This document shows positions 6,163-55,377 of a stretch of DNA of 64,000 nt, piece after piece (position 1 is the stretch's first letter; each line of letters starts with the position of its first letter). Under the pieces are notes generated by a model. The model had not been told where the DNA came from and searched no databases. It saw only the letters and a program-made list of their open reading frames with translations. The DNA is from a virus. The position numbers and the translations under genes were made by a program. The stretch lies in IMG/VR virus record IMGVR_UViG_3300030103_002937, positions 28,967 to 92,966 of that record; one strand, written 5' to 3'.

Positions 6163-6296
6163 ATATTTTGTATACCTAGATAATTTAGGAGGTGCTTTTG
6201 TAAGAAAAGTATCAGATATTTAGGGTTTTGGTGTTATATACTATTTTTTAACTACATACAACAATACGGAAACCATTTTATTTACGCCACCTCCCC

Positions 6297-6372
6297 TGCT
6301 TTTTTCTGAATATTCCGGGATTTTTTGGCTTTTCCCAGGGTTTTCCTGCAGATTTCGGGAACTTTCTGGGAT
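6297..6372. repeat. Degenerate 10-11 bp periodic T-tract repeats (TTTTCYNGGR-like)
   Basis: ttttctgaat attccgggat tttttggct tttcccaggg ttttcctgca gatttcggga actttctggg, at the divergence point of the two arms. Confidence 0.55.
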
Positions 6373-6415
6373 AGCTGCTAGCGCAGCGTGTATAGCAAAG
6401 AGCCGCTCGCCGTTT

Positions 6416-6449
6416 CGCAGACTAACCACGATCCTGCACCGATAATATA
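6416..6449 (+). promoter_or_regulatory. Early promoter-like motif, copy 1 (consensus TACARACTAAMCACG-N10-GATAATATA)
   Basis: Eight copies with an invariant 10-nt spacer upstream of early genes. Confidence 0.75.
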
Positions 6450-6470
6450 TTTGAATCTAAATTATACGAT

Positions 6471-6623
6471 ATGAGAGTACGAATTGACACGAAGAATTGG
6501 ATGGGCAACTATAGCAGCCGGGTCCAAACATTCAACGGGGAATCCCATCTGAACAACTACATCCGGTTCATGGGCCACCATGAGATCTATTCCAAGATCA
6601 TTGGGGTTGAGGTTCTGGATTAA
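6471..6623 (+). CDS. Small early protein (50 aa)
   Basis: MRVRIDTKNWMG..., directly after motif copy 1; below the ORF-track cutoff. Confidence 0.6.
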   Translation: MRVRIDTKNWMGNYSSRVQTFNGESHLNNYIRFMGHHEIYSKIIGVEVLD

Positions 6624-6664
6624 CCAGGGCACCGCCTGCGGTGTATAGCAACGCGTATAGCATT

Positions 6665-6698
6665 TACAGACTAACCACGATACTACTTCGATAATATA
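6665..6698 (+). promoter_or_regulatory. Early promoter-like motif, copy 2
   Basis: TACAGACTAACCACG-N10-GATAATATA. Confidence 0.8.
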
Positions 6699-6723
6699 TA
6701 TGTAATGAATTAAAATGTAAATT

Positions 6724-6864
6724 ATGAGTATAAACGATAAACTAAAACAACTGTACCAAAGATACGACTTTCTAATTGACTGTGACAGATGGGTACAAGC
6801 TAAGACAGTTCAAAAAGAAATAAGAGAATTAGAACTATTACGTGAAGAAAGTTATACAAACTAA
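6724..6864 (+). CDS. Small early protein (46 aa)
   Basis: MSINDKLKQL...; its stop codon lies inside motif copy 3. Confidence 0.55.
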   Translation: MSINDKLKQLYQRYDFLIDCDRWVQAKTVQKEIRELELLREESYTN

Positions 6865-6888
6865 ACACGAAGTAAAGTAGATAATATA
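6855..6888 (+). promoter_or_regulatory. Early promoter-like motif, copy 3
   Basis: TACAAACTAAACACG-N10-GATAATATA. Confidence 0.8.
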
Positions 6889-6915
6889 AATGTAAACAAT
6901 TAAAATTAAATAATT

Positions 6916-7167
6916 ATGAGTAAAGTAAATAACACACTAGTAAGTAAAAGATTTATCATTCGCAAATCTTTAATCGGTAAAAATGTCAATGTCTCATTCA
7001 CAGACTATGACGGTAAAACACACAAGTACTCACATGACAAAGTATACGAGTTATGTAAAGAAAGATTCGACAACATGAAATGTTTCCAAAAGTACAAGTA
7101 TTACTCTCAAACATTCGCACTACCGAAGTTTGTACGCGAGTTAGGTGATGAGGTTCTAGTCAAATAG
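6916..7167 (+). CDS. Hypothetical early protein
   Basis: 83-aa ORF after a promoter motif, A-rich start. Confidence 0.75.
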   Translation: MSKVNNTLVSKRFIIRKSLIGKNVNVSFTDYDGKTHKYSHDKVYELCKERFDNMKCFQKYKYYSQTFALPKFVRELGDEVLVK

Positions 7168-7281
7168 AACTTCACCCCTAGCGGGGGCTTCACCGCCCTC
7201 GTGTATAGCATATGTATAGCAAAAGTGAGGTGGAGTGATGAAGTGTAAAGTCAGGTAAACAAATGATCGGTAGCGAAAAGT

Positions 7282-7326
7282 GCGACACTAGCCTGTTATT
7301 AAAGATACTTAACTAGCTAATGTCAC
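7282..7326. promoter_or_regulatory. Spaced inverted repeat, copy 2 (GCGACACTAGC-N23-GCTAATGTCAC)
   Basis: Intergenic; right arm identical to that of copy 3. Confidence 0.65.
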
Positions 7327-7420
7327 ATTTTATTGCTTCACCATTCTATTAGATGACTAGAGAGGTGTTGTTATATATGTAACATACTTTTATATTCCAT
7401 ACTAACTATATATTTTTTTT

Positions 7421-7454
7421 TACAGTTTGAACACGAATCGGTGACGATAATATA
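7421..7454 (+). promoter_or_regulatory. Early promoter-like motif, copy 4
   Basis: TACAGTTTGAACACG-N10-GATAATATA. Confidence 0.75.
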
Positions 7455-7478
7455 TATGAAACTTTAAAACACATTACT

Positions 7479-7682
7479 ATGGCTTATGAACTAATCCTTA
7501 CCGATGTTCAAATGAAAAATTTAATCGGTAATCTAGAAATGCAAATGCACCAGAACGGTACAGATTTTACAGACACTACCGACCCACTGGCAAGTATTTT
7601 CTGCGCCGCAATGTTCGGAAACGAGTATATGAACAGTGACGAGAAAGGCGAACTCGAAGAGTATTACGAAACACATTACTAA
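7479..7682 (+). CDS. Hypothetical acidic early protein
   Basis: ORF track; follows a promoter motif. Confidence 0.7.
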   Translation: MAYELILTDVQMKNLIGNLEMQMHQNGTDFTDTTDPLASIFCAAMFGNEYMNSDEKGELEEYYETHY

Positions 7683-7692
7683 AATAATAATT

Positions 7693-7827
7693 ATGAGAAG
7701 TATAAACCTTACTGAAAACGATTGTACTTTCGTACACTATGTATTACGTCAATATGCTAAGACTACACCGAGCTTAGACAGTGAAGACAGAGAAGCAATA
7801 TATGCGGTAGCAAATAAATTCAAGTAA
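7693..7827 (+). CDS. Hypothetical early protein (likely start MRSINLTEND)
   Basis: ATG preceded by an A-rich leader inside track ORF 7636..7827. Confidence 0.6.
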   Translation: MRSINLTENDCTFVHYVLRQYAKTTPSLDSEDREAIYAVANKFK

Positions 7828-7831
7828 AGTT

Positions 7832-7969
7832 ATGGATATAGATATAGACAAGTATATAGACTGGTACAGTATTACTGACGACTATGAGTTGGCCAGTGGC
7901 GACATTTCACCTGAAGATTACTTTAAACTTCAAGAAATATTAGAACGGTATATTAAAACAAATAAATAA
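7832..7969 (+). CDS. Small early protein (45 aa)
   Basis: MDIDIDKYIDWY...; fills the gap between neighbours. Confidence 0.55.
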   Translation: MDIDIDKYIDWYSITDDYELASGDISPEDYFKLQEILERYIKTNK

Positions 7970-7971
7970 TT

Positions 7972-8169
7972 ATGAACAGTATAAAATTTTTAAAGGAGAA
8001 TAAAATACGATTGAACGGTGTGGTTTATAAACCTTACCTGATCGGTAACCTACCACCGAGCTTTGCATTCAAAGAGGAGTGGAAGACAGAAACTGACGGT
8101 ACAGAATATGTAGTCGAAGGTATTAACGAGTGGTTTAACTTTAAAGGATTTACCTATGTCAGTGAGTAA
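7972..8169 (+). CDS. Hypothetical early protein
   Basis: ORF track; operon packing. Confidence 0.7.
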   Translation: MNSIKFLKENKIRLNGVVYKPYLIGNLPPSFAFKEEWKTETDGTEYVVEGINEWFNFKGFTYVSE

Positions 8170-8365
8170 TATGAGAGAGCTACTAGCCTACAGTGCGGCG
8201 AAAAAAACCGAACGTGCTGAAGAGTGGAATGCGGAACGGTTAGCACACGGATATTGCAGAGGTCTGAATCACCGCGAATATATGCGGTATAGAGTAAACG
8301 GTAAGTCGGTATTCCGCAAAGGTAAAGACTTCTCACACCGCGAAAGGTGGAAATATACAAACTAA
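8156..8365 (+). CDS. Hypothetical basic early protein (start possibly 8171)
   Basis: ORF track; stop lies inside motif copy 5. Confidence 0.65.
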   Translation: MSVSNMRELLAYSAAKKTERAEEWNAERLAHGYCRGLNHREYMRYRVNGKSVFRKGKDFSHRERWKYTN

Positions 8366-8389
8366 ATACGAACACCTAACGATAATATA
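8356..8389 (+). promoter_or_regulatory. Early promoter-like motif, copy 5
   Basis: TACAAACTAAATACG-N10-GATAATATA. Confidence 0.8.
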
Positions 8390-8408
8390 AATATAAAATA
8401 CAAAAGTT

Positions 8409-8609
8409 ATGCCAAATATGAGTTATTGCAGGTACGAAAATACCTCGCTAGATATGCAAGATGTAGTAGATACATTATACGACAGTGATGTCACCGAAGA
8501 CTTAAGTACACACGAGACACGTGGCTTAAGAACCATACTCGAACTAGCTAAAGATATTGTAGATATGGAAGATAAGATAAATAACATACTTGAAAATCAA
8601 GAGCAATGA
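8409..8609 (+). CDS. Small phage protein (MxNMSYCRxENT type)
   Basis: N-terminus MPNMSYCRYENT. Confidence 0.7.
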   Translation: MPNMSYCRYENTSLDMQDVVDTLYDSDVTEDLSTHETRGLRTILELAKDIVDMEDKINNILENQEQ

Positions 8610-8842
8610 GCAGTATTAATACAACCCCACTTACAGTGCGCGACGTATCACTAACGGTAAGTTACTATCACCATGCCGGTGAACCAGCAGTTATGTATTA
8701 CAAAGACGGGTCAGGCCACCCAGGTGAACCACCTTCAATTGAAGTGCAAGCGGTATACGCAGGTGAGATAGATATTTATGAACTGTTAGACGCAGATATG
8801 TTAGATTATATAGAGGGTAAATTAATAGAAATACACTACTAA
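8606..8842 (+). CDS. Hypothetical early protein
   Basis: ATGA overlap with the previous gene. Confidence 0.7.
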   Translation: MSSINTTPLTVRDVSLTVSYYHHAGEPAVMYYKDGSGHPGEPPSIEVQAVYAGEIDIYELLDADMLDYIEGKLIEIHY

Positions 8843-9018
8843 TGAAACAACATTATATAACAGTATTAGATTTTACCGATGGCAGAATATATCAGTATGA
8901 TGCTTGGGAAGGAGCTCTTTCACACGACGACTATGAAGCATTACTAGATTTAAAAGGGCATAAGCTAAACAGTATTGAATGGATGGTTCATGAGAACAGT
9001 GAAATAATTACAAGCTAA
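8842..9018 (+). CDS. Small early protein (58 aa)
   Basis: TAATG coupling; MKQHYITVLDF...; stop lies inside motif copy 6. Confidence 0.65.
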   Translation: MKQHYITVLDFTDGRIYQYDAWEGALSHDDYEALLDLKGHKLNSIEWMVHENSEIITS

Positions 9019-9042
9019 ACACGAACCACATACGATAATATA
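9009..9042 (+). promoter_or_regulatory. Early promoter-like motif, copy 6
   Basis: TACAAGCTAAACACG-N10-GATAATATA; ATG follows 3 nt later. Confidence 0.8.
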
Positions 9043-9045
9043 AGT

Positions 9046-9237
9046 ATGAAAAAATGTAAATGTAACAATATAATACCGGCGGGGCGAGTAAACCTCGGGT
9101 ATAACACATGCACAACTTGTTCAAACGTTGAACAGTATAGCTACGTACCCATTATCGCACATAAGACCGGTAATACTATTCAAATCGTCAGTCAGGCAAC
9201 AAGTGCCGCAGTGCACAGGTCATGGCGACGTAAATAG
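9046..9237 (+). CDS. Small zinc-finger protein (DksA/TraR C4-like)
   Basis: CKC..IPAGR..LGY..CTTC. Confidence 0.6.
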   Translation: MKKCKCNNIIPAGRVNLGYNTCTTCSNVEQYSYVPIIAHKTGNTIQIVSQATSAAVHRSWRRK

Positions 9238-9298
9238 TTGTGTGATTAAAGGCGTAATTCCTTAGCGGGATGCGAGAAACGGCTCGATGAACACAACA
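9237..9298 (+). ncRNA. Putative structured RNA closed by a 7-bp stem (GTTGTGT/ACACAAC + A)
   Basis: Perfect closing stem with two internal hairpins; GC-rich island in an intergenic gap. Confidence 0.45.
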
Positions 9299-9349
9299 GA
9301 GGGGCAAGAGATGCGGGTTACACACCGGTAAATGGCGCGCGGCCCCTCA
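9299..9349 (+). ncRNA. Putative structured RNA closed by a 7-bp stem (GAGGGGC/GCCCCTC + A)
   Basis: Perfect closing stem, abutting both neighbours. Confidence 0.45.
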
Positions 9350-9351
9350 CT

Positions 9352-9431
9352 GGGCGTGAAATGGGTAGACAAGAAATAGGAGGCGAAAGCCACACTAACT
9401 TGTAACGCAGGTTCGATTCCTGCCACGTCCA
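9352..9431 (+). ncRNA. tRNA-like RNA resembling an isolated tmRNA tRNA-like domain (Ala acceptor)
   Basis: Acceptor GGGCGTG/CACGTCC-A with G3-U70; T arm GCAGG-TTCGATT-CCTGC; stemless 10-nt D loop; ACAAG/CTTGT helix capped by GGC-GAAA-GCC; no anticodon loop. Confidence 0.75.
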
Positions 9432-9446
9432 CTAAAATTATAAATT

Positions 9447-9716
9447 ATGAGTGAAATAACTAACCGGCCCTATAATGGGTGGAATAATTACGCAACCTTT
9501 CGTGTTCACAACGATATACTAAACGGATATCAGTGGGATGAAGACGAGGAAATAAACGTAGACTTACTAGAAGCAATAGTAGAAAATGCGGTATTTGAAA
9601 ACAGCGGAGCAGTTGGTTTAATTGTAGACTACGCCAACTTGTTCTTAAATAATGTAGATTGGGAAGAACTAGTAGAAGTATATAACTATGACAGAGAAGC
9701 AGAACAATCAAGCTAA
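9447..9716 (+). CDS. Phage protein (YNGWxNYxT type)
   Basis: PYNGWNNYAT...VDWEEL. Confidence 0.75.
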   Translation: MSEITNRPYNGWNNYATFRVHNDILNGYQWDEDEEINVDLLEAIVENAVFENSGAVGLIVDYANLFLNNVDWEELVEVYNYDREAEQSS

Positions 9717-9948
9717 GAGGTTAGCAGAGCTTAAAGATAAGCACGGTATTGTCTTACACGGCAACTCCGATGCTATACATCTCCTCGACCGTATCGAAAC
9801 GGTAATACGCGACCAAATACTTGAAACGATTACCGAAGAAATGTTTGAAGACGGTATAGTTGAAGAGACCGACGATAAGTATAGTTTACTATTATCTGTA
9901 CTATACTACGAGCTAATTTACAAACTAAACACGGATGCTAAACGATAA
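9688..9948 (+). CDS. Hypothetical early protein
   Basis: ORF track. Confidence 0.65.
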   Translation: MTEKQNNQAKRLAELKDKHGIVLHGNSDAIHLLDRIETVIRDQILETITEEMFEDGIVEETDDKYSLLLSVLYYELIYKLNTDAKR

Positions 9949-9952
9949 TATA
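9919..9952 (+). promoter_or_regulatory. Early promoter-like motif, copy 7
   Basis: TACAAACTAAACACG-N10-GATAATATA; ATG at 9956. Confidence 0.8.
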
Positions 9953-9955
9953 AGT

Positions 9956-10174
9956 ATGAAAGAAAAAGCAACACTATATAACAGACTCAAACCCAACTAC
10001 TTAGGTAAGTTAGTTGAGCAGCGTGAAAAGTTACCAAATATGGTAGCCGCAGCTGAACGAGCAATGAATGAAAACGTGTGGGTAATTAGCCTTACCGTTG
10101 GCGAGATGTGCACAATATGTGACGTACTCGAAATAGACTGGAACAAGTTATTTTTAATTTTTGAATATGAGTAA
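9956..10174 (+). CDS. Hypothetical protein, HTH-like C-terminus
   Basis: Start re-called at MKEKATLY, just after the promoter motif; LTVGEMCTICDVLEI. Confidence 0.6.
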   Translation: MKEKATLYNRLKPNYLGKLVEQREKLPNMVAAAERAMNENVWVISLTVGEMCTICDVLEIDWNKLFLIFEYE

Positions 10175-10637
10175 AAAGAAGTACATTACAGACGAGTTAA
10201 TCGAAGAGCGATTAAAAAAGCGAGGCCTGTCTTCATACGACGGTTATGGAGCAGAAGACGAAGATGCAGACTATAAAAAGCTATGTAAACACTATGACCT
10301 TGAAATAATAGATCGGTGGCATCAAAGAGCGGATTATTTTATGTACACTGAAACAACTGCAGACGGTTACGAAGTATGGGTTGCAACAGAACACCCAAAC
10401 GGTGATGTTAGCATAAATGAAGATGTTCACTACTATGACAGTGACCTTGCTGAAGTTCTTATGGAATGGATTAGGTACGGCGGAGCCACTATATACGTAG
10501 ACGATATAGAAGCGTATTATGTAACCGAAGCACTTGAAACTATGTGGGAAAACATGATTGACAGTATTAAAGACGAAATAATTATTGAATTACAAGATGA
10601 AGGATATGAATACGAAGACGCAGAAGCCACTGCCTAA
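10161..10637 (+). CDS. Hypothetical acidic protein
   Basis: 158-aa ORF (start probably 10167). Confidence 0.75.
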   Translation: MNMSKKKYITDELIEERLKKRGLSSYDGYGAEDEDADYKKLCKHYDLEIIDRWHQRADYFMYTETTADGYEVWVATEHPNGDVSINEDVHYYDSDLAEVLMEWIRYGGATIYVDDIEAYYVTEALETMWENMIDSIKDEIIIELQDEGYEYEDAEATA

Positions 10638-10842
10638 ATGGTTTGACGGAACAGTATATGAAAAGGGTGATACAGTATCAAACCCTTACACCGGCGACAA
10701 AGCCGAACTATCAGCAGAAGAGTTATCAATGTATGACGTAATCAAAGGTGCTGAATTTACACGAAGCTATAAACTTTTGCAGAAAGGTTTGGATTGGTTT
10801 AGACAAGCAAACCCCTCTGCATATATGACATTATTAGATTAA
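10585..10842 (+). CDS. Small phage protein
   Basis: LPKWFDG...GLDWFR..NP.AYM.LLD; start probably 10606. Confidence 0.7.
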   Translation: MNYKMKDMNTKTQKPLPKWFDGTVYEKGDTVSNPYTGDKAELSAEELSMYDVIKGAEFTRSYKLLQKGLDWFRQANPSAYMTLLD

Positions 10843-10844
10843 TT

Positions 10845-11000
10845 ATGAAATATCCAGATGCAGATAAACACTTTTGGGCTAGTATGACAAAGAGTGTTAT
10901 AAGAGTAGGAGGCTATTGTCTCATTTTTATTGACATTGAAGTAGCAGCGGGTATACTTATCGCTAGCGAAGTAATCGGAGTAATAGAAGAATTAGTATGA
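10845..11000 (+). CDS. Small membrane protein (51 aa)
   Basis: MKYPDADKHFW...hydrophobic...GVIEELV; ATGA coupling to the next gene. Confidence 0.6.
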   Translation: MKYPDADKHFWASMTKSVIRVGGYCLIFIDIEVAAGILIASEVIGVIEELV

Positions 11001-11602
11001 ATTTATTAACACAGAACGGGAAACTCAAGAAGACAAGCAAACAATTGGGAGTACGTGTATTCAATTTCGGAATACCAGCTTACAAGTCTGCGTCCGGCAA
11101 ACTTACTTGCCCTATGGCTGACTCCTGCGTAAAATTTTGTTACGCTAAAAAGGGAGCATACATATGGAGCAACGTGCAGCCGGCGTTTGAAAAGCGCTAC
11201 CAGCTCACCAAAACGGATGAGTTTGTAGAGGCAATGAACGTAGAGATTAAACGCAAGCGACCAGACTATGTGCGGGTCCATGATAGCGGAGACTACTACA
11301 GTCCCAAATATCTAAAGAAGTGGATCGAGATTGCTATACACAACCCGTCTGTTAATTTTTACAGTTATACTAATATGGTAGATATGTTTCATAAAACCGA
11401 TCTGCCACCTAACTTCGATATTATATTCAGTGATGCCGGTAAACAGGTGCATATGATTGATTATGAGCAAGATAGGTACACAAAGATATTCAAATCCGAT
11501 CAAGAGTTAGATCGTGCCGGGTTTGTAAATGCAAGCAAGGTAGATTTGTTTGCAACGAAATGGTTCAGTAAGAACAAAAAAATTGGACTAGTATATCACT
11601 AA
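10997..11602 (+). CDS. GP88-like protein (radical-SAM-like Cys cluster)
   Basis: N.KL.K, TCPMADSCVKFCYAKKG, RVHDSGD, FYSYT. Confidence 0.75.
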   Translation: MNLLTQNGKLKKTSKQLGVRVFNFGIPAYKSASGKLTCPMADSCVKFCYAKKGAYIWSNVQPAFEKRYQLTKTDEFVEAMNVEIKRKRPDYVRVHDSGDYYSPKYLKKWIEIAIHNPSVNFYSYTNMVDMFHKTDLPPNFDIIFSDAGKQVHMIDYEQDRYTKIFKSDQELDRAGFVNASKVDLFATKWFSKNKKIGLVYH

Positions 11603-11871
11603 TGAGTAAAACAATATCACAAAAGTATATAAGAGATTATATAACAGAACATTACGGTGAGTTACGCCATGATGTAAAGCGTATGGCTAAAGCATGCAGA
11701 ATTGTAGCTAAACAGTATGGTTATACACCTAAACAAATCTTTCATTTTATGATTGAACAAGAAAGCTTAGGTACTACTCATAGTTATGGTTTCAATACTG
11801 CTTATGGGCGTGAAATACGCGAGGAGTTTGAAGTACAATATCATGAAATGTATAAAGAAATTACAAACTAA
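11602..11871 (+). CDS. Hypothetical protein
   Basis: TAATG coupling; stop lies inside motif copy 8. Confidence 0.7.
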   Translation: MSKTISQKYIRDYITEHYGELRHDVKRMAKACRIVAKQYGYTPKQIFHFMIEQESLGTTHSYGFNTAYGREIREEFEVQYHEMYKEITN

Positions 11872-11895
11872 ACACGGATGGACACTGATAATATA
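11862..11895 (+). promoter_or_regulatory. Early promoter-like motif, copy 8
   Basis: TACAAACTAAACACG-N10-GATAATATA. Confidence 0.8.
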
Positions 11896-12111
11896 AAAGA
11901 TGAAGCACATACAATGATATGGGCACGATTGTCTACTGCTGAGCTAGATTTGCAACGAGCAAAAGACTGGGACGGCAGAGGTCATTTAGATACAGACGAA
12001 AGCTTTGAGGAGACAAAAGAAGCACATATTGAAATGGCAAGAAGACGAGTAAATATTTATCATTACTTGCTAACACAAGTAGAAAAAGATATGGCAGAAG
12101 ATGACGAATAA
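11878..12111 (+). CDS. Hypothetical protein
   Basis: ORF track; start uncertain because it overlaps the promoter motif. Confidence 0.6.
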   Translation: MDTDNIKDEAHTMIWARLSTAELDLQRAKDWDGRGHLDTDESFEETKEAHIEMARRRVNIYHYLLTQVEKDMAEDDE

Positions 12112-12376
12112 AGAAATGGAACGTTTAGCTGATCTTATAGTTACAAAAATAATAGAAAAGCAAAACGAAATTGATGCAGCCTTCTTTGAAGGTATGAATG
12201 AAGCTATTGATAAAGGCGCGGAATTTTCAATTGAAAGTCAGGAAGATATATTGTTAGGTGAGCTTGCAAGACTGCAAACTATTTTAGCAAAGTATGAACA
12301 CGAAGAACATTATGAAAAGGCAGCAATAATAGCGAATAAAATTAAATGGTTAGAAAATAAAATAAGTAAATTATGA
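12101..12376 (+). CDS. Protein with C-terminal UVR (UvrB/C) coiled-coil motif
   Basis: EHEEHYEKAAIIANKIKWLE. Confidence 0.65.
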   Translation: MTNKEMERLADLIVTKIIEKQNEIDAAFFEGMNEAIDKGAEFSIESQEDILLGELARLQTILAKYEHEEHYEKAAIIANKIKWLENKISKL

Positions 12377-12597
12377 GCAAAGTAGGAATTGAAACAGTAA
12401 CAGTAGACTCTAGCTTAGTATCAGTAATGACCTATGCTAGAAAAGCAAAAATGTTGTATGTAACATTTAAAAACGGTACAATATATTTGTACAACAATGT
12501 AGATCATGCAACCTATGAAGACGTACGTAATTCAGAATCTATAGGTAAAGCATTACATAAAGAAGTGTTTGGTGTATTCAAATATGAAAAACTGTAA
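12373..12597 (+). CDS. KTSC-domain protein
   Basis: VDSSLV...Y......LYVTFKNG..Y.Y.NV....Y......SIGK. Confidence 0.8.
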   Translation: MSKVGIETVTVDSSLVSVMTYARKAKMLYVTFKNGTIYLYNNVDHATYEDVRNSESIGKALHKEVFGVFKYEKL

Positions 12598-13100
12598 TGA
12601 ATTTATTTTATCTTGATAGAGACCCTGTTGTTGCCGCGTCTTATCATTACGATAAGCATAAGGTCAAGATGGTCTTAGAAGCAGCGCAAATGCTTTGTAC
12701 AGCTCATCACGCCTTAGGCGAACAGTATGAGTATGACACAAGTTATGTACCCTATCGTAAAGCACATTTGAATCACCCATCAACTATATGGGTACGATCA
12801 AGTGCTGAGCAATATGTGTGGGCATATAATTATATGATGGCTTTAGGTAAAGAATACAATAAACGTTACAACAAAACGCATTTGACTATTGACAAGTGCC
12901 GTGACGTGCTATACACTTTGCCAAAATACATTTCAATGAAACCATTCGAGGAGCCACCTCAGTGTATGCCTGACGAGTACAAAGTACCAGGTGATAGTAT
13001 TATGGCTTACTGGAATTATTATGAACAGGACAAATATAAAATAGCAAATAAAGATGAGCAAGTCATTGTACGACCACTTTATGTCAACGAATGTATTTAA
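12597..13100 (+). CDS. Pyrimidine-dimer DNA glycosylase-like protein (DenV-related)
   Basis: MNLFYLDRDP..AA..H.DKH.VKM.LE.AQML.TAH; H.NHPST.W; PPQCMPD. Confidence 0.8.
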   Translation: MNLFYLDRDPVVAASYHYDKHKVKMVLEAAQMLCTAHHALGEQYEYDTSYVPYRKAHLNHPSTIWVRSSAEQYVWAYNYMMALGKEYNKRYNKTHLTIDKCRDVLYTLPKYISMKPFEEPPQCMPDEYKVPGDSIMAYWNYYEQDKYKIANKDEQVIVRPLYVNECI

Positions 13101-13135
13101 CATTGCAAATAAAGTAAAACAACAACAAAAAAAGA

Positions 13136-13264
13136 ATGGGCAAAGTAAAAGAGCTGTTTCAGCAAATGAGAGAACAAGAACTAGATGATCAGTTCATAAA
13201 TGAACATTTTTTTCTTTGCACTCTTCGCGACGAAGGCAGCGACGATAGCAAGATAAATAAATAG
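13136..13264 (+). CDS. Small protein (42 aa)
   Basis: MGKVKELFQQMRE..., with an A-rich leader. Confidence 0.45.
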   Translation: MGKVKELFQQMREQELDDQFINEHFFLCTLRDEGSDDSKINK

Positions 13265-13283
13265 AATAATAGGCTAATGTCAC
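13239..13283. promoter_or_regulatory. Spaced inverted repeat, copy 3 (GCGACGATAGC-N23-GCTAATGTCAC), overlapping the ATG of the HTH gene
   Basis: Right arm contains the ATG at 13277. Confidence 0.65.
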
Positions 13284-13891
13284 GTAACATGAGGTACTTA
13301 CATAGTAACAAAATTATATACAGGAGAGGTCCAATAAGTGACCAACCTAGCGAAACCTTCGAGTGGGGTGCGTTCTATGAAACAGGTACACATGAGTGTT
13401 ACGAATTGTTTAGGAGTAAGGCTAAGATAACAAGTTATAAATCACTGAAGTGGCATTTACTTGTACTCTGGTACCTTAACCCACAACTCGACCAAGATAA
13501 GTTTGAACAGCTTGCATACTATATAGCGGAAAAGGATAATGGTTTTATAACCTTTTCAATACCTGAAATGTTACTCAAAAAGATTATTTATGATGTGAGC
13601 ATGGAAGATCTTGAATATCCGCCAAAAAATAGGATTAGAAAAGTTATATTTAAAGACAGTACTAATCTTACTAAATCTCAAAAGCTATCGATAGTAGGCA
13701 AGCTGATTGGTCGTAATAGTAAAGCGCAGCCAGAGGATATATACGAAACAATGTTACTTATCCATGATAAAAGCGAAAAGATTACAATAACAAAGATTGC
13801 GCGGATATTAAATGTGTCAACCCGTACTATCTACAGAAACATGACACATGAACTCACGAAAGAAAAAGAACTTTTGAATGAAGAAATATAA
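13277..13891 (+). CDS. DNA-binding protein with C-terminal HTH (possible replication initiator or regulator)
   Basis: KITITKIARILNVSTRTIYRNM. Confidence 0.75.
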   Translation: MSRNMRYLHSNKIIYRRGPISDQPSETFEWGAFYETGTHECYELFRSKAKITSYKSLKWHLLVLWYLNPQLDQDKFEQLAYYIAEKDNGFITFSIPEMLLKKIIYDVSMEDLEYPPKNRIRKVIFKDSTNLTKSQKLSIVGKLIGRNSKAQPEDIYETMLLIHDKSEKITITKIARILNVSTRTIYRNMTHELTKEKELLNEEI

Positions 13892-22446: not shown

Positions 22447-24212
22447 TGTGGAATAATGAATGGAAAAAAGGTGTCGACTACCCATCTTGGGGAGACACGG
22501 AAGTATACAAGAAGACTATATCCGGGGGATATCTACATATGGGAGAGTCTCCAAGAGACGCATACAAAAGAGTCGCAACAACAGTTGCAAGACGATTGTA
22601 CAAACCAGAGCTAGCAGATACATTTTTTGATTACATTTGGAAAGGGTGGTTGTGTTTAGCGTCTCCGGTTTTATCTAATACAGGTACCGATCGTGGTTTA
22701 CCTATATCATGCTTTGGGATTGACGTAGGAGACAGCATACACGATATTGGTACAAAGAATTTAGAAATGATGATGCTTGCCAAACACGGTGGGGGTGTTG
22801 GTATCGGAGTTAACATGATTCGTCCCGCCGGAGCTAAAATCACAGGAAATGGAACATCAGATGGAGTCGTACCCTTCTGCAAAATCTACGATAGCACAAT
22901 TCTTGCAACCAATCAAGGATCAGTTAGACGCGGAGCTGCAAGCGTTAATATCAACATTGACCACGGAGATTTTGAAGAGTGGCTTGAAATACGAGAGCCT
23001 AAAGGAGATGTCAACAGACAATCGCTTAACTTACATCAGTGCGCAGTGGTTGGCGATAAGTTTATGCGAAAGCTTGAACGAGGAGATGCAGAAGCTAGAT
23101 CTAAATGGAGTAAACTTCTTAGAAAAAGGAAAAGCACCGGAGAACCGTATATCCTTTTTAAAGGAAACACTAATAAAGCAAATCCAGCAGCGTACAAAGA
23201 CAACGCTTTAAAAGTGCATATGACTAATATCTGTAGCGAAATAGTATTGCACACAGATGAGTCGCATAGCTTTGTTTGCTGTTTAAGCAGTTTAAATGTC
23301 ACTAAGTATGAAGAATGGAAGAATACAAACCTTATCTACGATGCTATCTGGTTTCTTGATGGAGTCTTGGAAGAGTTTATTCAGAAGGCTAAAGGGCTTA
23401 CAGGTTTTGGAAACTCTGTTAGATCTGCTGAGAAGGGCAGAGCACTTGGCTTGGGAGTCTTGGGTTGGCATACGTACCTGCAACAAAACGGTGTACCCTT
23501 TGAAGGATTACAAGCACAGTTCCAGACAAGACGTATATTTAGCCAAATTAAGATTGAATCTGAACGAGCATCAAGAGCGCTTGCTGAGGTTTATGGTGAA
23601 CCTCTTTGGTGTCGTGGCACTGGCTTTCGCAACACTCATCTTAGGGCTGTTGCTCCTACTGTGTCTAATAGTAAGCTTGCCGGTAATGTTAGTCCTGGTG
23701 TTGAGCCTTGGGCCGCTAATGTTTTCACTGAACAAAGCGCGAAGGGTACGTTCATTAGGAAAAACAGAGAACTAGAAAAAGTACTTCGTAAAGTTGGAAT
23801 CAACGTCAAAGAAACGTGGGATAAAATTATGGCCGACGGCGGGAGTATACAAGATATCGAAGAGTTAGATAACTGGGGATATGTTAATGGTAAGCTTACG
23901 CTTATTGAGGACTCAAAATCGTACGATCTAACGGGCTTTGATAAAGTTAAAGATGTATTTAAAACCTTTAAAGAAATAAATCAATTAGAGCTAGTTAATC
24001 AAGCCGGCATACGTCAGCAGTATATTGACCAATCTGTCAGTTTGAATTTAGCTTTTCCTTCTGAAGCGTCGCCTAAGTGGATTAATCAAGTTCATATGGA
24101 CGCCTGGAAAAAAGGTATTAAAACATTATATTACATGCGGACAGAGTCTGTACTGAGAGGCGATATAGCTGCAAGTGCTATGGACCCAGACTGTGTTGCT
24201 TGTGATGGGTAA
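22443..24212 (+). CDS. nrdA: Ribonucleotide reductase class I alpha subunit (no ATP cone)
   Basis: SPVLSN.G, PISCF, GGGVG, NQGSVRRGA, TNICSEI, VAPT.S, YY, C-terminal CVAC. Confidence 0.95.
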   Translation: MMWNNEWKKGVDYPSWGDTEVYKKTISGGYLHMGESPRDAYKRVATTVARRLYKPELADTFFDYIWKGWLCLASPVLSNTGTDRGLPISCFGIDVGDSIHDIGTKNLEMMMLAKHGGGVGIGVNMIRPAGAKITGNGTSDGVVPFCKIYDSTILATNQGSVRRGAASVNINIDHGDFEEWLEIREPKGDVNRQSLNLHQCAVVGDKFMRKLERGDAEARSKWSKLLRKRKSTGEPYILFKGNTNKANPAAYKDNALKVHMTNICSEIVLHTDESHSFVCCLSSLNVTKYEEWKNTNLIYDAIWFLDGVLEEFIQKAKGLTGFGNSVRSAEKGRALGLGVLGWHTYLQQNGVPFEGLQAQFQTRRIFSQIKIESERASRALAEVYGEPLWCRGTGFRNTHLRAVAPTVSNSKLAGNVSPGVEPWAANVFTEQSAKGTFIRKNRELEKVLRKVGINVKETWDKIMADGGSIQDIEELDNWGYVNGKLTLIEDSKSYDLTGFDKVKDVFKTFKEINQLELVNQAGIRQQYIDQSVSLNLAFPSEASPKWINQVHMDAWKKGIKTLYYMRTESVLRGDIAASAMDPDCVACDG

Positions 24213-24213
24213 T

Positions 24214-24249
24214 AAAAAAAGGGGAAGCTTAACGGCCTCCCCTTCTTTG
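24214..24249. terminator. Bidirectional rho-independent terminator between the converging arms
   Basis: A7-GGGGAAGC-TTAACG-GCCTCCCC-TTCTTT. Confidence 0.8.
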
Positions 24250-24293
24250 TTACAGGATTTTTGGGTATGGTGCCCATTTTTTTTATTCCTGTT

Positions 24294-24590
24294 TTATTTG
24301 AATCTTTTTTCAATTCTATTCATTTTCTTTTCTTTTCTTTTAGCAAGTCTTTCGCTAGCTTTGCCTTTCTTTATAACTTCTCTGTTATTTTTTTGATACG
24401 AAACACTACCATCATTAAGTGCAAATAAAGATATAACTTTCTTACCAGTATCTAAACTTCTAAAGTATTGAGCACTACCGTCTTCAGAAGTTATTACACC
24501 CTTATTTGTGTATAATGCTCTATAACCTTTTCCGTTATCTACTTCTTTATTCGTAGAGGTTGATTGTATATTAAATTTACCGTTTCTCAT
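24294..24590 (-). CDS. Basic hypothetical protein
   Basis: Last gene of the late arm; TAATG coupling. Confidence 0.65.
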   Translation of the reverse strand: MRNGKFNIQSTSTNKEVDNGKGYRALYTNKGVITSEDGSAQYFRSLDTGKKVISLFALNDGSVSYQKNNREVIKKGKASERLAKRKEKKMNRIEKRFK

Positions 24591-24946
24591 TATTTCTTTA
24601 CTTCAAATTTAAAATTCTTACCTGACACAGCAAGCTTATCAATTACTTCAGTTTGCGTATCGCGCAGTAGTCTTTCAAGTTTATCTTTTTCTATAACCAT
24701 ACCGGCTACTTTATCTTCTAGCGCTTCGTTTTTTGCTTTTAGTGATTCTAACTCTTCAGGATTCTTACCTATAAAAGTATATATCACCACACTTAAAGAA
24801 CCAACAAGCATACCGACAATAACTTTAAATATATCATTATTTGTTTCCGGTATTTCTTTAAAGGCTAAAAATAATAATAAACCCATAACCATTGCAAATA
24901 CTGTTGCAGCGCCTATGTAACCCCTCATTTCTTTGTTTCTAAACAT
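24590..24946 (-). CDS. 2-TM membrane protein with coiled coil (holin-like)
   Basis: Two hydrophobic helices; start re-called at MFRNKEM with an A-rich leader. Confidence 0.65.
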   Translation of the reverse strand: MFRNKEMRGYIGAATVFAMVMGLLLFLAFKEIPETNNDIFKVIVGMLVGSLSVVIYTFIGKNPEELESLKAKNEALEDKVAGMVIEKDKLERLLRDTQTEVIDKLAVSGKNFKFEVKK

Positions 24947-24956
24947 TTGTTTTATT

Positions 24957-25001
24957 TTAGCATAAGCCGCAGCCAATGCAGATTGGACATATATTTTCCA
25001 T
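24957..25001 (-). CDS. 14-aa Cys-rich micropeptide MENICPICIGCGLC
   Basis: ATG 2 nt after the upstream stop; TAA followed by the A-rich leader of the next gene; CxxCxxCxxC. Confidence 0.6.
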   Translation of the reverse strand: MENICPICIGCGLC

Positions 25002-25003
25002 AA

Positions 25004-25414
25004 TTAAAAATTTGATGCTAAGTTAATTTCATTTATTGCTTCTTGTATTTCAGCCAACCCCACAGGAAGCGTAAGGTCAAGACCTGCTTTAAATATTTTT
25101 TCCATACTACCAGACTTAAAAATAAGCACAGTAGGTACCATTCGAACCCTATACTTTTTTTTAGCTTGTGGTGCCGTAGATATATCAACTCTATAATATG
25201 ATGCATTTTCTATTTTATCCCATTCGTTAAAACAATTTGCTTCATTAAATTTAGCCCAGAATTCAACAACTATTGTGCCATCATTATCATCACCAAAAGC
25301 ATTATCGTTACTTATTGTTTGGTCAAAGTTGCTATCATCAATCCAGTATTTTGCCGGCACGTCGGATTGTGCGTGTGCTAAAGCACTTATAAGCAGTAGT
25401 ATTAAAGTTCTCAT
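25004..25414 (-). CDS. Secreted thioredoxin-fold protein lacking CxxC
   Basis: Signal peptide ending AHA-Q; IDDSNFD, IVVEFWAKFN, YRVDI, YRVRMVPTVLIFK. Confidence 0.75.
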   Translation of the reverse strand: MRTLILLLISALAHAQSDVPAKYWIDDSNFDQTISNDNAFGDDNDGTIVVEFWAKFNEANCFNEWDKIENASYYRVDISTAPQAKKKYRVRMVPTVLIFKSGSMEKIFKAGLDLTLPVGLAEIQEAINEINLASNF

Positions 25415-25695
25415 TGATTTTTTCTTATTTCGTATAAACGCCCGTCTATTTTTTCTAACTCTTCTAGTATTTTGTCAACATCTTCTTGTGTGTCCATGAT
25501 TGTTTGACGAACTAATTCGTCTTTTAAATCATATTCCGTTCTTGAGATAACCGGCTCTGGAAGTTCTTTAGCGAGAGCTATATCGGATTTTAAAGTAAAA
25601 TACATAGTAGCTAAAGATACTGCGCCACCTATAATTATACCTATTGTCTTCAGATCAAGAGTTACTTTTGTGTTTTCCCCTATTTGCTGTGCCAT
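25411..25695 (-). CDS. Single-TM protein with coiled-coil tail
   Basis: TIGIIIGGAVSLATMYF followed by a heptad pattern. Confidence 0.7.
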   Translation of the reverse strand: MAQQIGENTKVTLDLKTIGIIIGGAVSLATMYFTLKSDIALAKELPEPVISRTEYDLKDELVRQTIMDTQEDVDKILEELEKIDGRLYEIRKNQ

Positions 25696-26888
25696 TATCT
25701 AAATGTTATATTGATTCCAAAATTAGAATTAAATATTTCTGAGTCCCAAAATTTAGTATATTCACCTTCTACAAATATACCTATTGACTTAGTTACTTTC
25801 CAACCAAACATTAAGCCAGCCTGGTAGTCGTCCCATTGTTCACCACTTATCAAATCATTGTGACCCCCTTTGCCCCAACTGTTACGATGCAAATAGCTAA
25901 AGTCCTCGTTGCCCTCCACATAACTGTGATGAGGCATAATCCAGTTGCCATAAGCATGCAGCCAAAAATTATTTTTGTAATGATAAAAATCAAATCCAAC
26001 AATCGGCGCGATCTCAGCAAACGAGTCTAGCTCAGCCCATGCTTCCTGGTTAAACCTATTCATTAAGCCACCAAATATACGATCTCTAAAATCTTCATCT
26101 GTATACGCAACTATATCACCTCTATCGTTTGTCCATAAATAATTATATATTTGTGATGTGCTACCATCAGGATTATAAACTTCTGAAGAATAAAATGCGT
26201 CTTGAAACCCATATTCATAGCCTAAAGAATACCAAGGGTTAACAGGTATTTCTTGACCGGAGTACTCGTCTACCATTGTTTCATTAAGCCATATTTCAAT
26301 AGGGTTATAACCGTATGCTTTTTGATGTGTACGATATATAATACCCGCAGATATGCTTAGTTTGTTACCTATAGGCAATCTAGCTCTTACTTCGCCAGAC
26401 ATATATTCAAATCCAACATTACCTGATTCTCTAGATTCAAACTTACCTATATGGTATTTACCTGTGTGTCTTACAAATAAACGTCTGTTATCAAACTCGT
26501 TGCCGTCTACTCTTTGTTTTTCCAAGTGCAATAAATATTCTAAACCTTTTACTGCAGCGGTTGGTGCAGATAAACCTACGTTGTTTTCTGTACCATTGTA
26601 AAAATTTGGTTTACTTTCATAACCAAACCTTGCTAGCTTACGAAGTCCAACGCCAATACGATAGTTATTCGGATGGTAAGTAGTTTGATCTACAACACGA
26701 GGTATACCATATAAATCGTTAGGATCTGTTCTAACAAAATACTTTGTTTGCTCTAATTTAGCATTACCCACATTTCCTGCAGCATATACGGTACCATATT
26801 TTAAAAAGTCATCGTATAAACCTTTAAGAAACTGCGATTGCACATTAAAGGACAGTAGCACTACTATAAGCAGAATTAATTTTTTCAT
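25695..26888 (-). CDS. Predicted outer-membrane beta-barrel protein
   Basis: Sec signal MKKLILLIVVLLSFNVQS-Q; aromatic/Gly-rich alternating strands; C-terminal beta-signal-like FGINITFR. Confidence 0.7.
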   Translation of the reverse strand: MKKLILLIVVLLSFNVQSQFLKGLYDDFLKYGTVYAAGNVGNAKLEQTKYFVRTDPNDLYGIPRVVDQTTYHPNNYRIGVGLRKLARFGYESKPNFYNGTENNVGLSAPTAAVKGLEYLLHLEKQRVDGNEFDNRRLFVRHTGKYHIGKFESRESGNVGFEYMSGEVRARLPIGNKLSISAGIIYRTHQKAYGYNPIEIWLNETMVDEYSGQEIPVNPWYSLGYEYGFQDAFYSSEVYNPDGSTSQIYNYLWTNDRGDIVAYTDEDFRDRIFGGLMNRFNQEAWAELDSFAEIAPIVGFDFYHYKNNFWLHAYGNWIMPHHSYVEGNEDFSYLHRNSWGKGGHNDLISGEQWDDYQAGLMFGWKVTKSIGIFVEGEYTKFWDSEIFNSNFGINITFR

Positions 26889-27343
26889 ATTACTTCGTAT
26901 TTTGTTTTATTGTTGGAATCTCTATAAGCTTTTAAGCATCTGTTTCTATTAGAGTCAGGAGATACATAACTAACATGTACCCAATCAGGGTTGTTATCTG
27001 TTCCAAACTCCCATATGAGCTGATCAAAATCAAGATTGTTTTTTATGTAGTTATACATTTCCGCGTTTGTTTTGTGACCATATGTGTCATCAATATCAAT
27101 TGCACGGCCTTCACAATGTTGTGATTTTGAACTACCTCCGATTGCTTTATTAAGCTCAATCGAACGAAAAAATGAATTAATTTTTATGGGGCCACCTACC
27201 CATTTGCGTAGCGGTTCAAATATATTTTCTGCAATAACCTGCATATTAGTCTTTTCATATTCGTTAGGTATATTGTTTATACCTTTTCTTTTTGCAGTGT
27301 ATGAAAGTGTTCCTTCTTTATAGCTAATATGGTTACTTATCAT
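26885..27343 (-). CDS. Endolysin, peptidase M15A family
   Basis: INSFFRS..LN.AIGGS..SQH..G.A.D; FDQLIWEF; WVHVSY. Confidence 0.9.
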   Translation of the reverse strand: MISNHISYKEGTLSYTAKRKGINNIPNEYEKTNMQVIAENIFEPLRKWVGGPIKINSFFRSIELNKAIGGSSKSQHCEGRAIDIDDTYGHKTNAEMYNYIKNNLDFDQLIWEFGTDNNPDWVHVSYVSPDSNRNRCLKAYRDSNNKTKYEVI

Positions 27344-27711
27344 GTTCTTCTTTTTACAGACTTAACACGGCGAGGTTTGCCCGCTGGTTGTCCAAGCCTT
27401 TTCTTTTCTGATATTTTCTTTTTCTTTTCAGCTGAAGACATTTCTGATGCTGTCTTAGGGGTTTTGCTTGATATACGTTTTTTAGGTCTGCAATATGGCA
27501 CTCCTCTTCCGTCGCCTTTGGTGCGGCCGCATGGTTTACCTGTGCGCACATCAATCCATTCCTCTTTAAACCAGCGTTTAAGTGAAGCGCCTTTTTCTGT
27601 CTTACGTACTTTTTTTAAAGGAGACATCATCATTTTTACTGCAGATCCTTCTCCGCGTTCATTTTTACTAGCCCATACAGCTTTTCTTTGGGCGTCACTT
27701 ACATATGGCAT
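27340..27711 (-). CDS. Small basic protein (DUF5872-like)
   Basis: LKRWFKEEW.D..TGKPCGR......PYCRP.KR.S.KTPKT. Confidence 0.7.
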   Translation of the reverse strand: MPYVSDAQRKAVWASKNERGEGSAVKMMMSPLKKVRKTEKGASLKRWFKEEWIDVRTGKPCGRTKGDGRGVPYCRPKKRISSKTPKTASEMSSAEKKKKISEKKRLGQPAGKPRRVKSVKRRT

Positions 27712-27713
27712 AG

Positions 27714-28232
27714 TTATTTATTATTTATAAAATTATACATTGCTAAGCCTAATTCTTTTCCAAAATCAGAATCTGACTTATAATGAGCTCTAGCTACATT
27801 TCTACTATAAGATATATCTTCTGCTTTTTTATTTAATTCTTTAGATTTTTCAGGATATTTATTTTTTAAATACTCTGATATTAAATACGCTTGAGCTGAA
27901 TGCCCAGAGGGGTAAGAAGGAGTTTTCATTGAATTTAATTCAACATTTTTTAAATTTAACCCAAAATTTTTAGCCGCTTCTTTTGGTCGGGGTCTATTAA
28001 AATATTTTTTTAAATTTAATATTAAATCATGAGAGCTTCTTACTAACTCATTTATTCCTTCGTCTTTTACTATAGAATTAAACTCTTTAACTATATTATC
28101 ATTTTTTTTAATAAAACTTTTATTAATAGGTATTTTGTCTAACTCTTGTATTTCTGAAAAAGTTTTTAAAGAATTATCAGCAGGAGGCTTTTTATTTTTA
28201 AAAGAATTTATATTAAATTCACTTAAATTCAT
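27714..28232 (-). CDS. Soluble PAP2-superfamily phosphatase/haloperoxidase
   Basis: All three motifs: KKYFNRPRP, PSYPSGHS, SRNVARAHYKSD. Confidence 0.85.
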   Translation of the reverse strand: MNLSEFNINSFKNKKPPADNSLKTFSEIQELDKIPINKSFIKKNDNIVKEFNSIVKDEGINELVRSSHDLILNLKKYFNRPRPKEAAKNFGLNLKNVELNSMKTPSYPSGHSAQAYLISEYLKNKYPEKSKELNKKAEDISYSRNVARAHYKSDSDFGKELGLAMYNFINNK

Positions 28233-28384
28233 TACTTTTTACTTTTAGTACCCCAATTAGCAGCACCAACTTTACGGCATTTAGCTATCGCTCCGCTTGC
28301 ATAAGCAGACGGAAACACTTTATATCTTGCTTTTACTTTACGATAGCAAGCATCTTTTTTTTCAAATGGTGAGTTTGATTTCAT
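28232..28384 (-). CDS. Small basic protein (50 aa)
   Basis: MKSNSPFEKKDACYRKVKARYKVFPSAYASGAIAKCRK...; coupled on both sides. Confidence 0.7.
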   Translation of the reverse strand: MKSNSPFEKKDACYRKVKARYKVFPSAYASGAIAKCRKVGAANWGTKSKK

Positions 28385-54978: not shown

Positions 54979-55377
54979 TTAATTATTATTGTTGGATTTT
55001 TTTGATTTTTCCCACGTGCGTCCAACAAAATACGCGCCGTAGACTGTTATTAATAATGATTGAAAAATTGGAATATATTCTTGTGCAACTTCAAAACCAC
55101 CTACATTACCATCAGCAAATGCTAGAATAGTAAATATAGATGTAAGATACACTAACACAAGCGGCCGAATGTTTTTTGATAAAAATGAATCTGATTGCAT
55201 ATCCATTTTCCATCTTTCAGTCACTTGCGTTTGCGCGTCTTGATCTGCTTTTTCTAATAGCTCTTGTATTTTTTGTTTAGCGGCTAATCTTTCTTCGTCT
55301 GTAGTTGTAAGTTTATCAATTACATTACCTACGTCTTTAATTATACCACCAGATAAAATACTTAAAAGCTTTTTCAT
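54979..55377 (-). CDS. Holin (GTA-type 3TM holin family)
   Basis: VIDKL.TTDEE.L.AK; RW..DM.SDS.LSKNIRP; GAYF.GR..EK. Confidence 0.8.
   Translation of the reverse strand: MKKLLSILSGGIIKDVGNVIDKLTTTDEERLAAKQKIQELLEKADQDAQTQVTERWKMDMQSDSFLSKNIRPLVLVYLTSIFTILAFADGNVGGFEVAQEYIPIFQSLLITVYGAYFVGRTWEKSKKSNNNN

Follow-up and report, generated by a model that had tools for sequence, protein, structure and literature searches.

A late-operon cassette of envelope proteins

The stretch of DNA analysed here, hereafter the window, comprises 64,000 nucleotides (bases 28967-92966) of the 92,966-bp IMG/VR virus record IMGVR_UViG_3300030103_002937. At 24294-27343, on the minus strand, it carries a lysis-linked cassette in which an M15 endolysin is accompanied by a β-barrel protein, a coiled-coil protein with a transmembrane (TM) segment (TMcc), and an exported thioredoxin-like (Trx-like) protein (Table 1). 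Six closely coupled genes had been described at this locus in an original prediction made from the letters alone, and they are present. All lie on the minus strand, each coupled to or overlapping its neighbour, with overlaps of 4 nt between endolysin and barrel, 1 nt between barrel and TMcc (the TMcc start shares one base with the barrel stop), and 4 nt between TMcc and Trx-like (ATGA). The cassette forms the distal end of a late operon that runs on the minus strand from about 64000 down to 24294 and encodes GroEL/GroES, a holin, the terminase, the portal, virion proteins, and a protein of 2248 amino acids (aa). The hairpin that closes this operon opposes the terminator (24262-24286) of a convergent ribonucleotide reductase operon.

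The large terminase of the window shares an identity of 45% with those of podophages of Flavobacterium, Cellulophaga, Tenacibaculum, and Maribacter. After the hydrophobic region of the signal, an Ala, Gly, or Ser residue followed by Gln is found in 187 of 190 barrel homologues and in 180 of 185 Trx-like homologues. This junction matches the "Q-rule" of Bacteroidota, according to which substrates of signal peptidase I (SPI) carry Gln at position +1 (PMC5837995, PMC10653852), and so supports both a Bacteroidota host and the export of the two proteins. It appears that the genes at 24294-27343 make up the distal portion of a lysis cassette, and that the phage is virulent and infects marine Flavobacteriia.

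The 397-aa protein had been proposed to be a Sec-exported barrel, and AlphaFold2, Foldseek, and VIA-align all support the barrel fold. The AlphaFold2 model, built on an alignment of 27 sequences, is an all-β barrel with a mean predicted local distance difference test (pLDDT) value of 76.4. Foldseek retrieved only outer-membrane barrels with it, the best being NanC (E 5e-7), with EspP and OmpG also found, and VIA-align gave Z values of 14.2 for Tsx (196 residues aligned), 12.5 for EstA, 12.2 for KdgM, and 11.9 for NanC. DSSP assigned 14 long strands to the model. The hairpin at 229-253 is the least conserved and gappiest region of the family, which makes 12 strands with one very large outward loop likelier and fits the 12-strand top matches. 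The model thus points to an outer-membrane β-barrel of 12-14 strands, probably 12. Its last strand holds G391 and N393, both invariant or nearly so, and the C-terminus reads ..NITFR in the window and ..NYLIF in distant members. Most indels fall in the outward loops, and the large extra loops include a 22-residue helix. The most conserved, gap-free stretch of the family is 75-114, which comprises strand 2 and a predicted periplasmic turn of 30 residues (85-114) and was modelled with pLDDT below 50. In outer-membrane proteins (OMPs), a periplasmic turn is seldom both long and conserved, and this one suggests a binding partner. None of 27 diverse family members matched the Pfam OMP models (OMP_b-brl, Tsx, KdgM, PorP_SprF, and others) at E up to 0.1, none had a Pfam or PHROG match of any kind, and a profile search of solved structures with the barrel alignment returned no match.

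The structural matches also include LpxR, OMPLA, and PagL (Z 10.5, 8.9, and 8.2, respectively), raising the alternative that the barrel acts alone at lysis, either by hydrolysing lipid A or phospholipid as an outer-membrane enzyme or by forming a pore that destabilises the membrane. Conserved polar residues (E117, H311, E374, and several Arg) would suit an enzyme, and the pairwise distances of the barrel track those of the endolysin (r 0.81). However, the similarity to the three enzymes is generic and ranks below that to Tsx and KdgM, neither a conserved Ser/His/Asn triad nor another mark of catalysis was found, Pfam gave no match, and the conserved charges may simply fill the barrel lumen. 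A barrel that works on its own is, in our judgement, very unlikely.

The TMcc protein is predicted to lie N-in/C-out in the inner membrane. Its C-terminal helix is acidic, its N-terminal 16 residues are conserved, and its PHROG match (6664, unknown function) is weak. Among its variant forms (L002 7194-7508 and 7511-7795; proteins P0271 and P0272) are tandem paralogues, a protein whose periplasmic part is longer because its motif is duplicated internally (P0271), and a fused double TM-coiled-coil protein. A cytoplasmic MshEN/T2SSE_N motif seen by eye in the N-terminal extensions of two long forms (L096, L097) would have settled the topology but was dropped, as Pfam did not confirm it. The Joint Genome Institute label "copper chaperone CopZ", attached to many homologues, has no Pfam support and is probably an annotation artefact.

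The fold of the Trx-like protein, noted earlier together with a signal peptide and a WAKFN motif in place of WCxxC, is corroborated by Pfam and by a structure profile, and the motif by an alignment of 67 family members. The family profile matched solved thioredoxins at 4.5e-15. FWAKFN(EAN), or FWAxFN in the family, stands where thioredoxin has WCGPC, the cis-Pro "PT" is kept, and P94 is invariant. CxxC occurs at the active-site position in none of the 67 members, the mature part holds 0-2 Cys across the family, and the single Cys of the window protein is substituted in relatives. The protein would thus be redox-dead, and no redox chemistry is expected of it. Short signal-peptide proteins of 104-117 aa in some gene arrangements also belong to this family.

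The endolysin contains an H-x6-D motif (SQHCEGRAID) and, later, WVH, which, by analogy with other LAS enzymes, would be the zinc ligands (H..D..H). It has no signal peptide, TM, or hydrophobic segment, so its release should depend on a holin. A separate holin at 54979, also part of the original prediction, was recovered by both Pfam and PHROG; it lies 27 kb from the cassette in the window genome and adjoins the cassette in many relatives.

Table 1. Features of the cassette, the late operon, and related loci (positions refer to the window unless a relative's locus is named).
Feature	Position	Strand	Length	Basis and remarks
Hairpin, GC-rich, with T-run	24214-24244	minus		closes late operon; read directly; the terminator scanner called only a plus-strand site
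Basic protein	24294-24590	minus	98 aa	24 Lys + Arg; last gene of operon
2-TM protein	24590-24946	minus	118 aa	likelier start ATG 24946; alternative TTG 24976 gives 128 aa
Cys open reading frame (ORF), putative	24957-25001	minus	14 codons	MENICPICIGCGLC; read directly; start 2 nt past Trx-like stop
Trx-like protein, exported thioredoxin fold	25004-25414	minus	136 aa	signal peptide; Pfam PF00085, 28.5 bits (cut-off 23.5)
TMcc	25411-25695	minus	94 aa	one N-terminal TM (17-35), Pro linker ELPEP, ~45-residue heptad-patterned helix
β-barrel protein	25695-26888	minus	397 aa	Sec/SPI signal ending ..VQS before Q; predicted structure
Endolysin, Peptidase_M15_3 (LAS-type zinc peptidase)	26885-27343	minus	152 aa	Pfam PF08291, 58 bits; PHROG 894 "endolysin", 1.2e-27
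Holin, GTA_holin_3TM type	54979-55377	minus		Pfam PF11351, 28.1 bits; PHROG 3427, 1.8e-28
Cassette lipoproteins in relatives	L246 9629-10000; L251 2200-2589; L243 10590-10853; L221 11475-11738; L193 11109-11666

Conservation beside lysis genes

Related loci were sampled in three sets of 80, picked by barrel alignment, by a distant barrel subfamily (30-40% identity to the barrel of the window), and by TMcc, and were scored with custom-built hidden Markov models; the set of 81 given below includes the window's own locus, and the set of 90 includes loci from metagenome-assembled genomes (MAGs). TMcc is present in 77 of the 81 barrel-picked loci and in 79 of the 90 distant-subfamily loci, and the barrel in 61 of the 75 TMcc-picked loci, being missing from 14. 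Where the downstream side is visible, the Trx-like gene directly follows TMcc in 172 of 183 loci. With O for barrel, T for TMcc, X for Trx-like, E for M15 endolysin, and H for holin, the gene orders among 190 distinct loci include OTXE (54), OTX (45), OTXEH (18), TXO (15), TXOEH (13), and TXE (7), and the order of the window, E-O-T-X, is rare. Contiguous O-T-X-E-H is also found around barrels just 30-40% identical to that of the window. The endolysin slot itself varies, being filled by M15_3, by a 135-aa Amidase_2 protein (L043), or by PG_binding_1 plus Amidase_2 (L219).

The conserved core is therefore the barrel, TMcc, and Trx-like protein, often with an endolysin, and the module is a tight TMcc/Trx-like pair with a frequently associated barrel. 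The synteny expected for the cassette holds for these core genes and fails for its distal end, with the 2-TM gene in 7 of the 81 loci and the 98-aa basic gene in none of them, so that the six genes are not conserved as a unit. Because the module stays beside interchangeable endolysins and the holin through rearrangements, as lysis cassettes do, its gene context makes a link to lysis well supported.

The families are large. Barrel homologues form 2281 clusters at 90% identity, with 248 representatives left at 50% identity, and many come from marine metagenomes, TARA among them; TMcc has at least 8000 homologue clusters, all with E <0.001. A tblastn search of 50,697 GenBank phage records with the barrel, TMcc, and Trx-like proteins gave no match, and a DNA search gave trivial matches only. 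A scan seeded with the barrel pattern, covering one genome for each of 185,579 prokaryote species, yielded 12 loci, all on MAG contigs whose labels are mutually inconsistent (Pelagibacter, Woesearchaeota, Nitrosopelagicus, Flavobacteriales) and which are best read as mis-binned viral contigs. The ESM Atlas neighbours of the barrel are all viral hypothetical clusters. As judged from these searches, the barrel is a new family, so far on viral contigs only. In the freshwater relative MW202828 (terminase 63% identical), none of the genes annotated up to 5 kb from the M15 gene has the size of the barrel gene.

A candidate outer-membrane lysis route and its alternatives

According to PMC6139136, no spanin can be identified in around 13% of the phages that infect Gram-negative hosts, and its spanin-less entries include phages of Croceibacter and Bacteroides; few cultured flavobacterial phages have an annotated spanin (PMC8776804). 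No lipobox-bearing outer-membrane spanin component (o-spanin) had been evident in the original prediction, and a scan for lipobox-like or signal-like N-termini at every ORF and internal start of the whole 92,966-bp record likewise gave no convincing lipoprotein, which leaves the outer-membrane step of lysis without a conventional candidate. Nor is any minus-strand ORF embedded in TMcc, and the barrel and Trx-like proteins have SPI signals ending in Ala, Gly, or Ser before Gln, with no lipobox. Two ORFs were considered and set aside. The first, an ORF of 175 aa whose start resembles a signal and lipobox (52823-53350, minus; ..LISLALITCTCSG), in an alternative frame of the terminase gene, was not convincing; it is also open in the related genomes G002 and G003 (193-203 aa) and may be an overprinted gene or stay open simply because the terminase is conserved. 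In the second, of 66 aa (55377-55577, minus; start MKKITILILFIFITC), the lipobox-like "FITC" lies inside a hydrophobic stretch of 19 residues, as in a TM protein. Adjoining the holin start in an antiholin-like position, it may provide the holin locus with a second small membrane protein.

We tentatively favour the reading that the barrel, TMcc, and Trx-like proteins together are a spanin-equivalent for outer-membrane disruption in Bacteroidota phages. All envelope proteins of the cassette would be made late and accumulate in the envelope, where the periplasmic helix of TMcc, as an N-in/C-out protein, would pair with the Trx-like protein. The pair would be linked to the outer membrane via the barrel, with the turn at 85-114 as a candidate docking site. 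After the holin and endolysin had cleared the peptidoglycan, the assembly would destabilise the outer membrane or fuse it with the inner membrane, doing the job of an Rz/Rz1-type spanin, with the lipoprotein o-spanin replaced by an integral barrel. PMC6139136 (section 15) has already stated that "an OMP could act as an o-spanin". The claim is that the trio "works like" a spanin, not that it "is a member of" the spanins, because the tests for a lipoprotein o-spanin, for a known sequence family, and for disulfides all failed. A broader proposal, in which a three-part "barrel spanin" (coiled-coil inner-membrane protein, redox-dead thioredoxin adaptor, and barrel for the o-spanin) is the main outer-membrane route of an abundant group of ocean Bacteroidota phages, is more doubtful; it would give the "OMP as o-spanin", which PMC6139136 raised without an example, its first case.

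The original prediction had grouped these proteins into a trans-envelope complex. None of the three findings named as refuting it was made: the 397-aa protein is a barrel, the core genes co-occur in relatives, and no canonical spanin was found. Beyond that the outcome is mixed. The lysis link stands, as does the coupling of TMcc to the Trx-like protein, whose distance matrices correlate with the endolysin controlled (partial r 0.60, 86 loci). The place of the barrel in the complex is less secure. A complex prediction with the barrel, the Trx-like protein, and the periplasmic part of TMcc (score 0.25, mark 0.32) counts neither for nor against binding.

Several observations weigh against the spanin-equivalent reading. 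With the endolysin taken into account, barrel distances no longer correlate with those of TMcc and Trx-like (partial r 0.10 and 0.09, respectively), which is weak evidence, as short proteins give noisy distances. Five related records of 82-100% estimated completeness carry the TMcc/Trx-like pair, mostly beside an endolysin, with no barrel anywhere, and the barrel is therefore not obligatory for the pair; three of these five near-complete genomes are also without any lipoprotein. A paralogous set without a barrel lies outside the window in the same record (G000 9014-9990, minus; locus L082), between portal and head-morphogenesis genes, and consists of a TMcc of 92 aa, a Trx-like protein of 109 aa, and a 2-TM protein of 121 aa, which are 35%, 30%, and 65% identical to the window copies, respectively. 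The periplasmic part of TMcc, at about 58 residues, is short for spanning the periplasm even with the thioredoxin domain added. None of the three proteins has a Pfam or PHROG match to a spanin family. TMcc and the barrel have no Cys, and the Trx-like protein has one that is not conserved. Intermolecular disulfides are near-universal in known spanins, with periplasmic Cys absent in about 4% (PMC6139136). Finally, the trans-envelope complex and the topology of TMcc are both proposals from sequence and gene context.

The loss of the barrel in some relatives, as expected of an accessory gene, and its lack of specific co-evolution with TMcc or Trx-like would also fit superinfection exclusion or receptor masking, in which the phage barrel blocks or modifies a receptor in the host outer membrane, and TMcc and Trx-like are unrelated neighbours or assembly helpers. 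Lambda Lom reportedly serves exclusion or receptor masking with its own barrel. The concentration of indels in the outward loops is consistent with a diversifying surface, and phage-encoded barrels are common and have been discussed in terms of receptor-level interference (bioRxiv 10.64898/2026.10.24.761521). However, several gene orders keep the barrel translationally coupled to TMcc/Trx-like and next to the endolysin and holin, as do lineages with as little as 30-40% identity. It is also encoded in the late operon of an apparently virulent phage, when exclusion pays least, and the region it conserves most is the predicted periplasmic turn and no surface loop. Exclusion, one of the functions originally proposed, is in our view unlikely.

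A further alternative concerns lysis timing. The TMcc/Trx-like pair is tight and co-evolving, and it adjoins the endolysin and holin even where the barrel is missing; the two proteins could be an antiholin or lysis-inhibition sensor that tunes the holin, with the barrel having a separate function. In T4, the holin T and the periplasmic RI combine a single-TM protein with a secreted periplasmic partner, and the layout of TMcc/Trx-like matches theirs. The first 16 residues of TMcc are conserved, as is rarely seen in a simple membrane anchor, and this points the same way. Yet neither Pfam nor PHROG linked the pair to T, to RI, or to a known family of holins or antiholins. The genome already encodes a holin of GTA type and a 2-TM protein resembling holins, and the outer-membrane step would be left unexplained in a genome without a convincing lipoprotein. 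We regard a role in timing as quite unlikely, and the spanin-equivalent continues to be the reading that we prefer.

If that reading is correct, spanin function would extend to a β-barrel anchor and a thioredoxin-fold adaptor. It would also help to annotate lysis genes in a major ocean phage group and add a membrane-active module of a new kind to the Bacteroidota envelope.

Neighbouring genes and comparison with known systems

The 2-TM protein has TM segments at 19-43 and 48-70 (128-aa numbering) and a charged coiled-coil C-terminus, and its matches to Pfam 2TM and PHROG 9990 are weak and sub-threshold. In shape, with two TM segments and a charged C-terminus, it resembles a class II holin, and its gene is next to the endolysin in L002, L005, L026, and L053. 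It is probably a holin-like accessory.

The 14-codon Cys ORF is kept in L004 (5656-5700) as MEDICPICMGCVLC, with all four Cys retained and two codon changes synonymous. L004 is the one relative with the same Trx-like to 2-TM junction and the only one in which the ORF turned up; it is missing from the paralogous TMcc/Trx-like/2-TM module outside the window. This ORF bears on the solute or metal uptake function that the original prediction had offered, here taken as a late-expressed uptake or redox system, for which nothing was found in favour beyond the channel architecture of a Tsx/KdgM-like 12-strand barrel and the adjacency of a Cys-rich micro-ORF and a thioredoxin fold. The Trx-like protein lacks CxxC and any conserved Cys, transporters, binding proteins, and TonB-type components are absent, the micro-ORF recurs in a single relative, and the conserved context consists of lysis genes. 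Such a system has next to no probability.

Upstream of the endolysin lies a gene for a PAP2-superfamily phosphatase of 172 aa (27714-28232, minus) with no TM segment discernible by eye, which recurs near the cassette in L015 and L120. It might conceivably act on lipid A or undecaprenyl phosphate during lysis. Two strongly cationic, Cys-containing small proteins, one of 50 aa and one a DUF5872 protein, are encoded at 28232-28384 and 27340-27711 (minus), and such proteins repeatedly flank the TMcc/Trx-like/endolysin genes, as in L200, L221, L224, and L242. In one lineage (L112 8062-8781, L120 8293-8973, L131 6447-7109), the barrel gene is followed by that of a signal-peptide protein of 220-239 aa with a Cys-rich N-terminus. 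It has no Pfam match and its C-terminus (..GKIKYKL) resembles the ends of M15 endolysins, and it may be a secreted endolysin.

Lipoproteins of at least three families (123-147, 87, and ~185 aa) are found inside the cassette of some relatives, with and without a barrel, and could be o-spanin-like partners or exclusion lipoproteins. Whether a lipoprotein replaces the barrel where it is missing was also considered: of 10 loci without the barrel, 4 have a lipoprotein gene in the cassette, against 22 of 143 with it (Fisher p = 0.067). Some loci have both. We regard this as no more than suggestive and do not rely on it. The record also holds a second packaging and head gene set outside the window (G000 6229-13445 and 23655-26135; loci L082 and L083), comprising an HK97-like terminase, portal, protease, and capsid protein, along with genes for a tape measure protein, major tail proteins, and a second holin; a podovirus-like terminase and portal sit inside the window. 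Two flavobacterial phages may have been assembled into this one 92,966-bp record as a chimera.

Compared with two-component spanins (lambda Rz/Rz1, T4 PseT.3/PseT.2, and P2 LysB/LysC), the trio is likewise late and encoded beside endolysin and holin genes, and in both cases a second component is targeted to the outer membrane. TMcc, in its predicted orientation, resembles an inner-membrane spanin in its N-terminal TM segment, Pro linker, and periplasmic coiled coil, and its homologues (92-122 aa) are similar in length to T4 PseT.3 (117 aa). In contrast, the outer-membrane component of spanins is a short lipoprotein, while that of the trio is a 397-aa integral barrel with an SPI signal, which is lost in some relatives. 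The trio further differs in having a third, soluble thioredoxin-fold protein, in lacking an embedded or overlapped gene architecture, and in showing no sequence similarity to these spanins. With thioredoxin, the Trx-like protein shares the fold, the FWA motif, and the cis-Pro loop, but it has FN-x-x-N for CxxC, is secreted, and is paired with a membrane-anchored coiled coil.

The best structural matches of the barrel are channels and enzymes (Tsx, KdgM, NanC, autotransporters, LpxR, OMPLA), with which its sequence identity is 7-10%, and it differs from the known 12-strand members in its extra loops, 22-residue helix, and 30-residue periplasmic turn. Like lambda Lom (Ail/Lom family) and the barrels of huge phages (bioRxiv 10.64898/2026.10.24.761521), it is phage-encoded, Sec-exported, and bound for the host outer membrane. 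However, Lom-type barrels have 8 strands, whereas that of the window has 12-14 and belongs to no Pfam family. Unlike the Lom and huge-phage barrels, it is coupled to inner-membrane and periplasmic proteins in a lysis cassette, in phages of 60-90 kb. Should the barrel mask receptors instead, its family would still be a large and new one among viral OMPs, with a link to lysis genes.

Known cases of spanin-independent outer-membrane disruption in spanin-less genomes are the phiKT gp28 "disruptin" (bioRxiv 10.1101/515445) and membrane-active endolysins, which are likewise encoded in or beside the lysis genes. The disruptin is a single small cationic amphipathic peptide, whereas the candidates in the cassette are three structured envelope proteins. 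Flavobacterial phages are largely spanin-less, and for their breach of the outer membrane the cassette offers, beside the phiKT peptide, a concrete and very abundant candidate.

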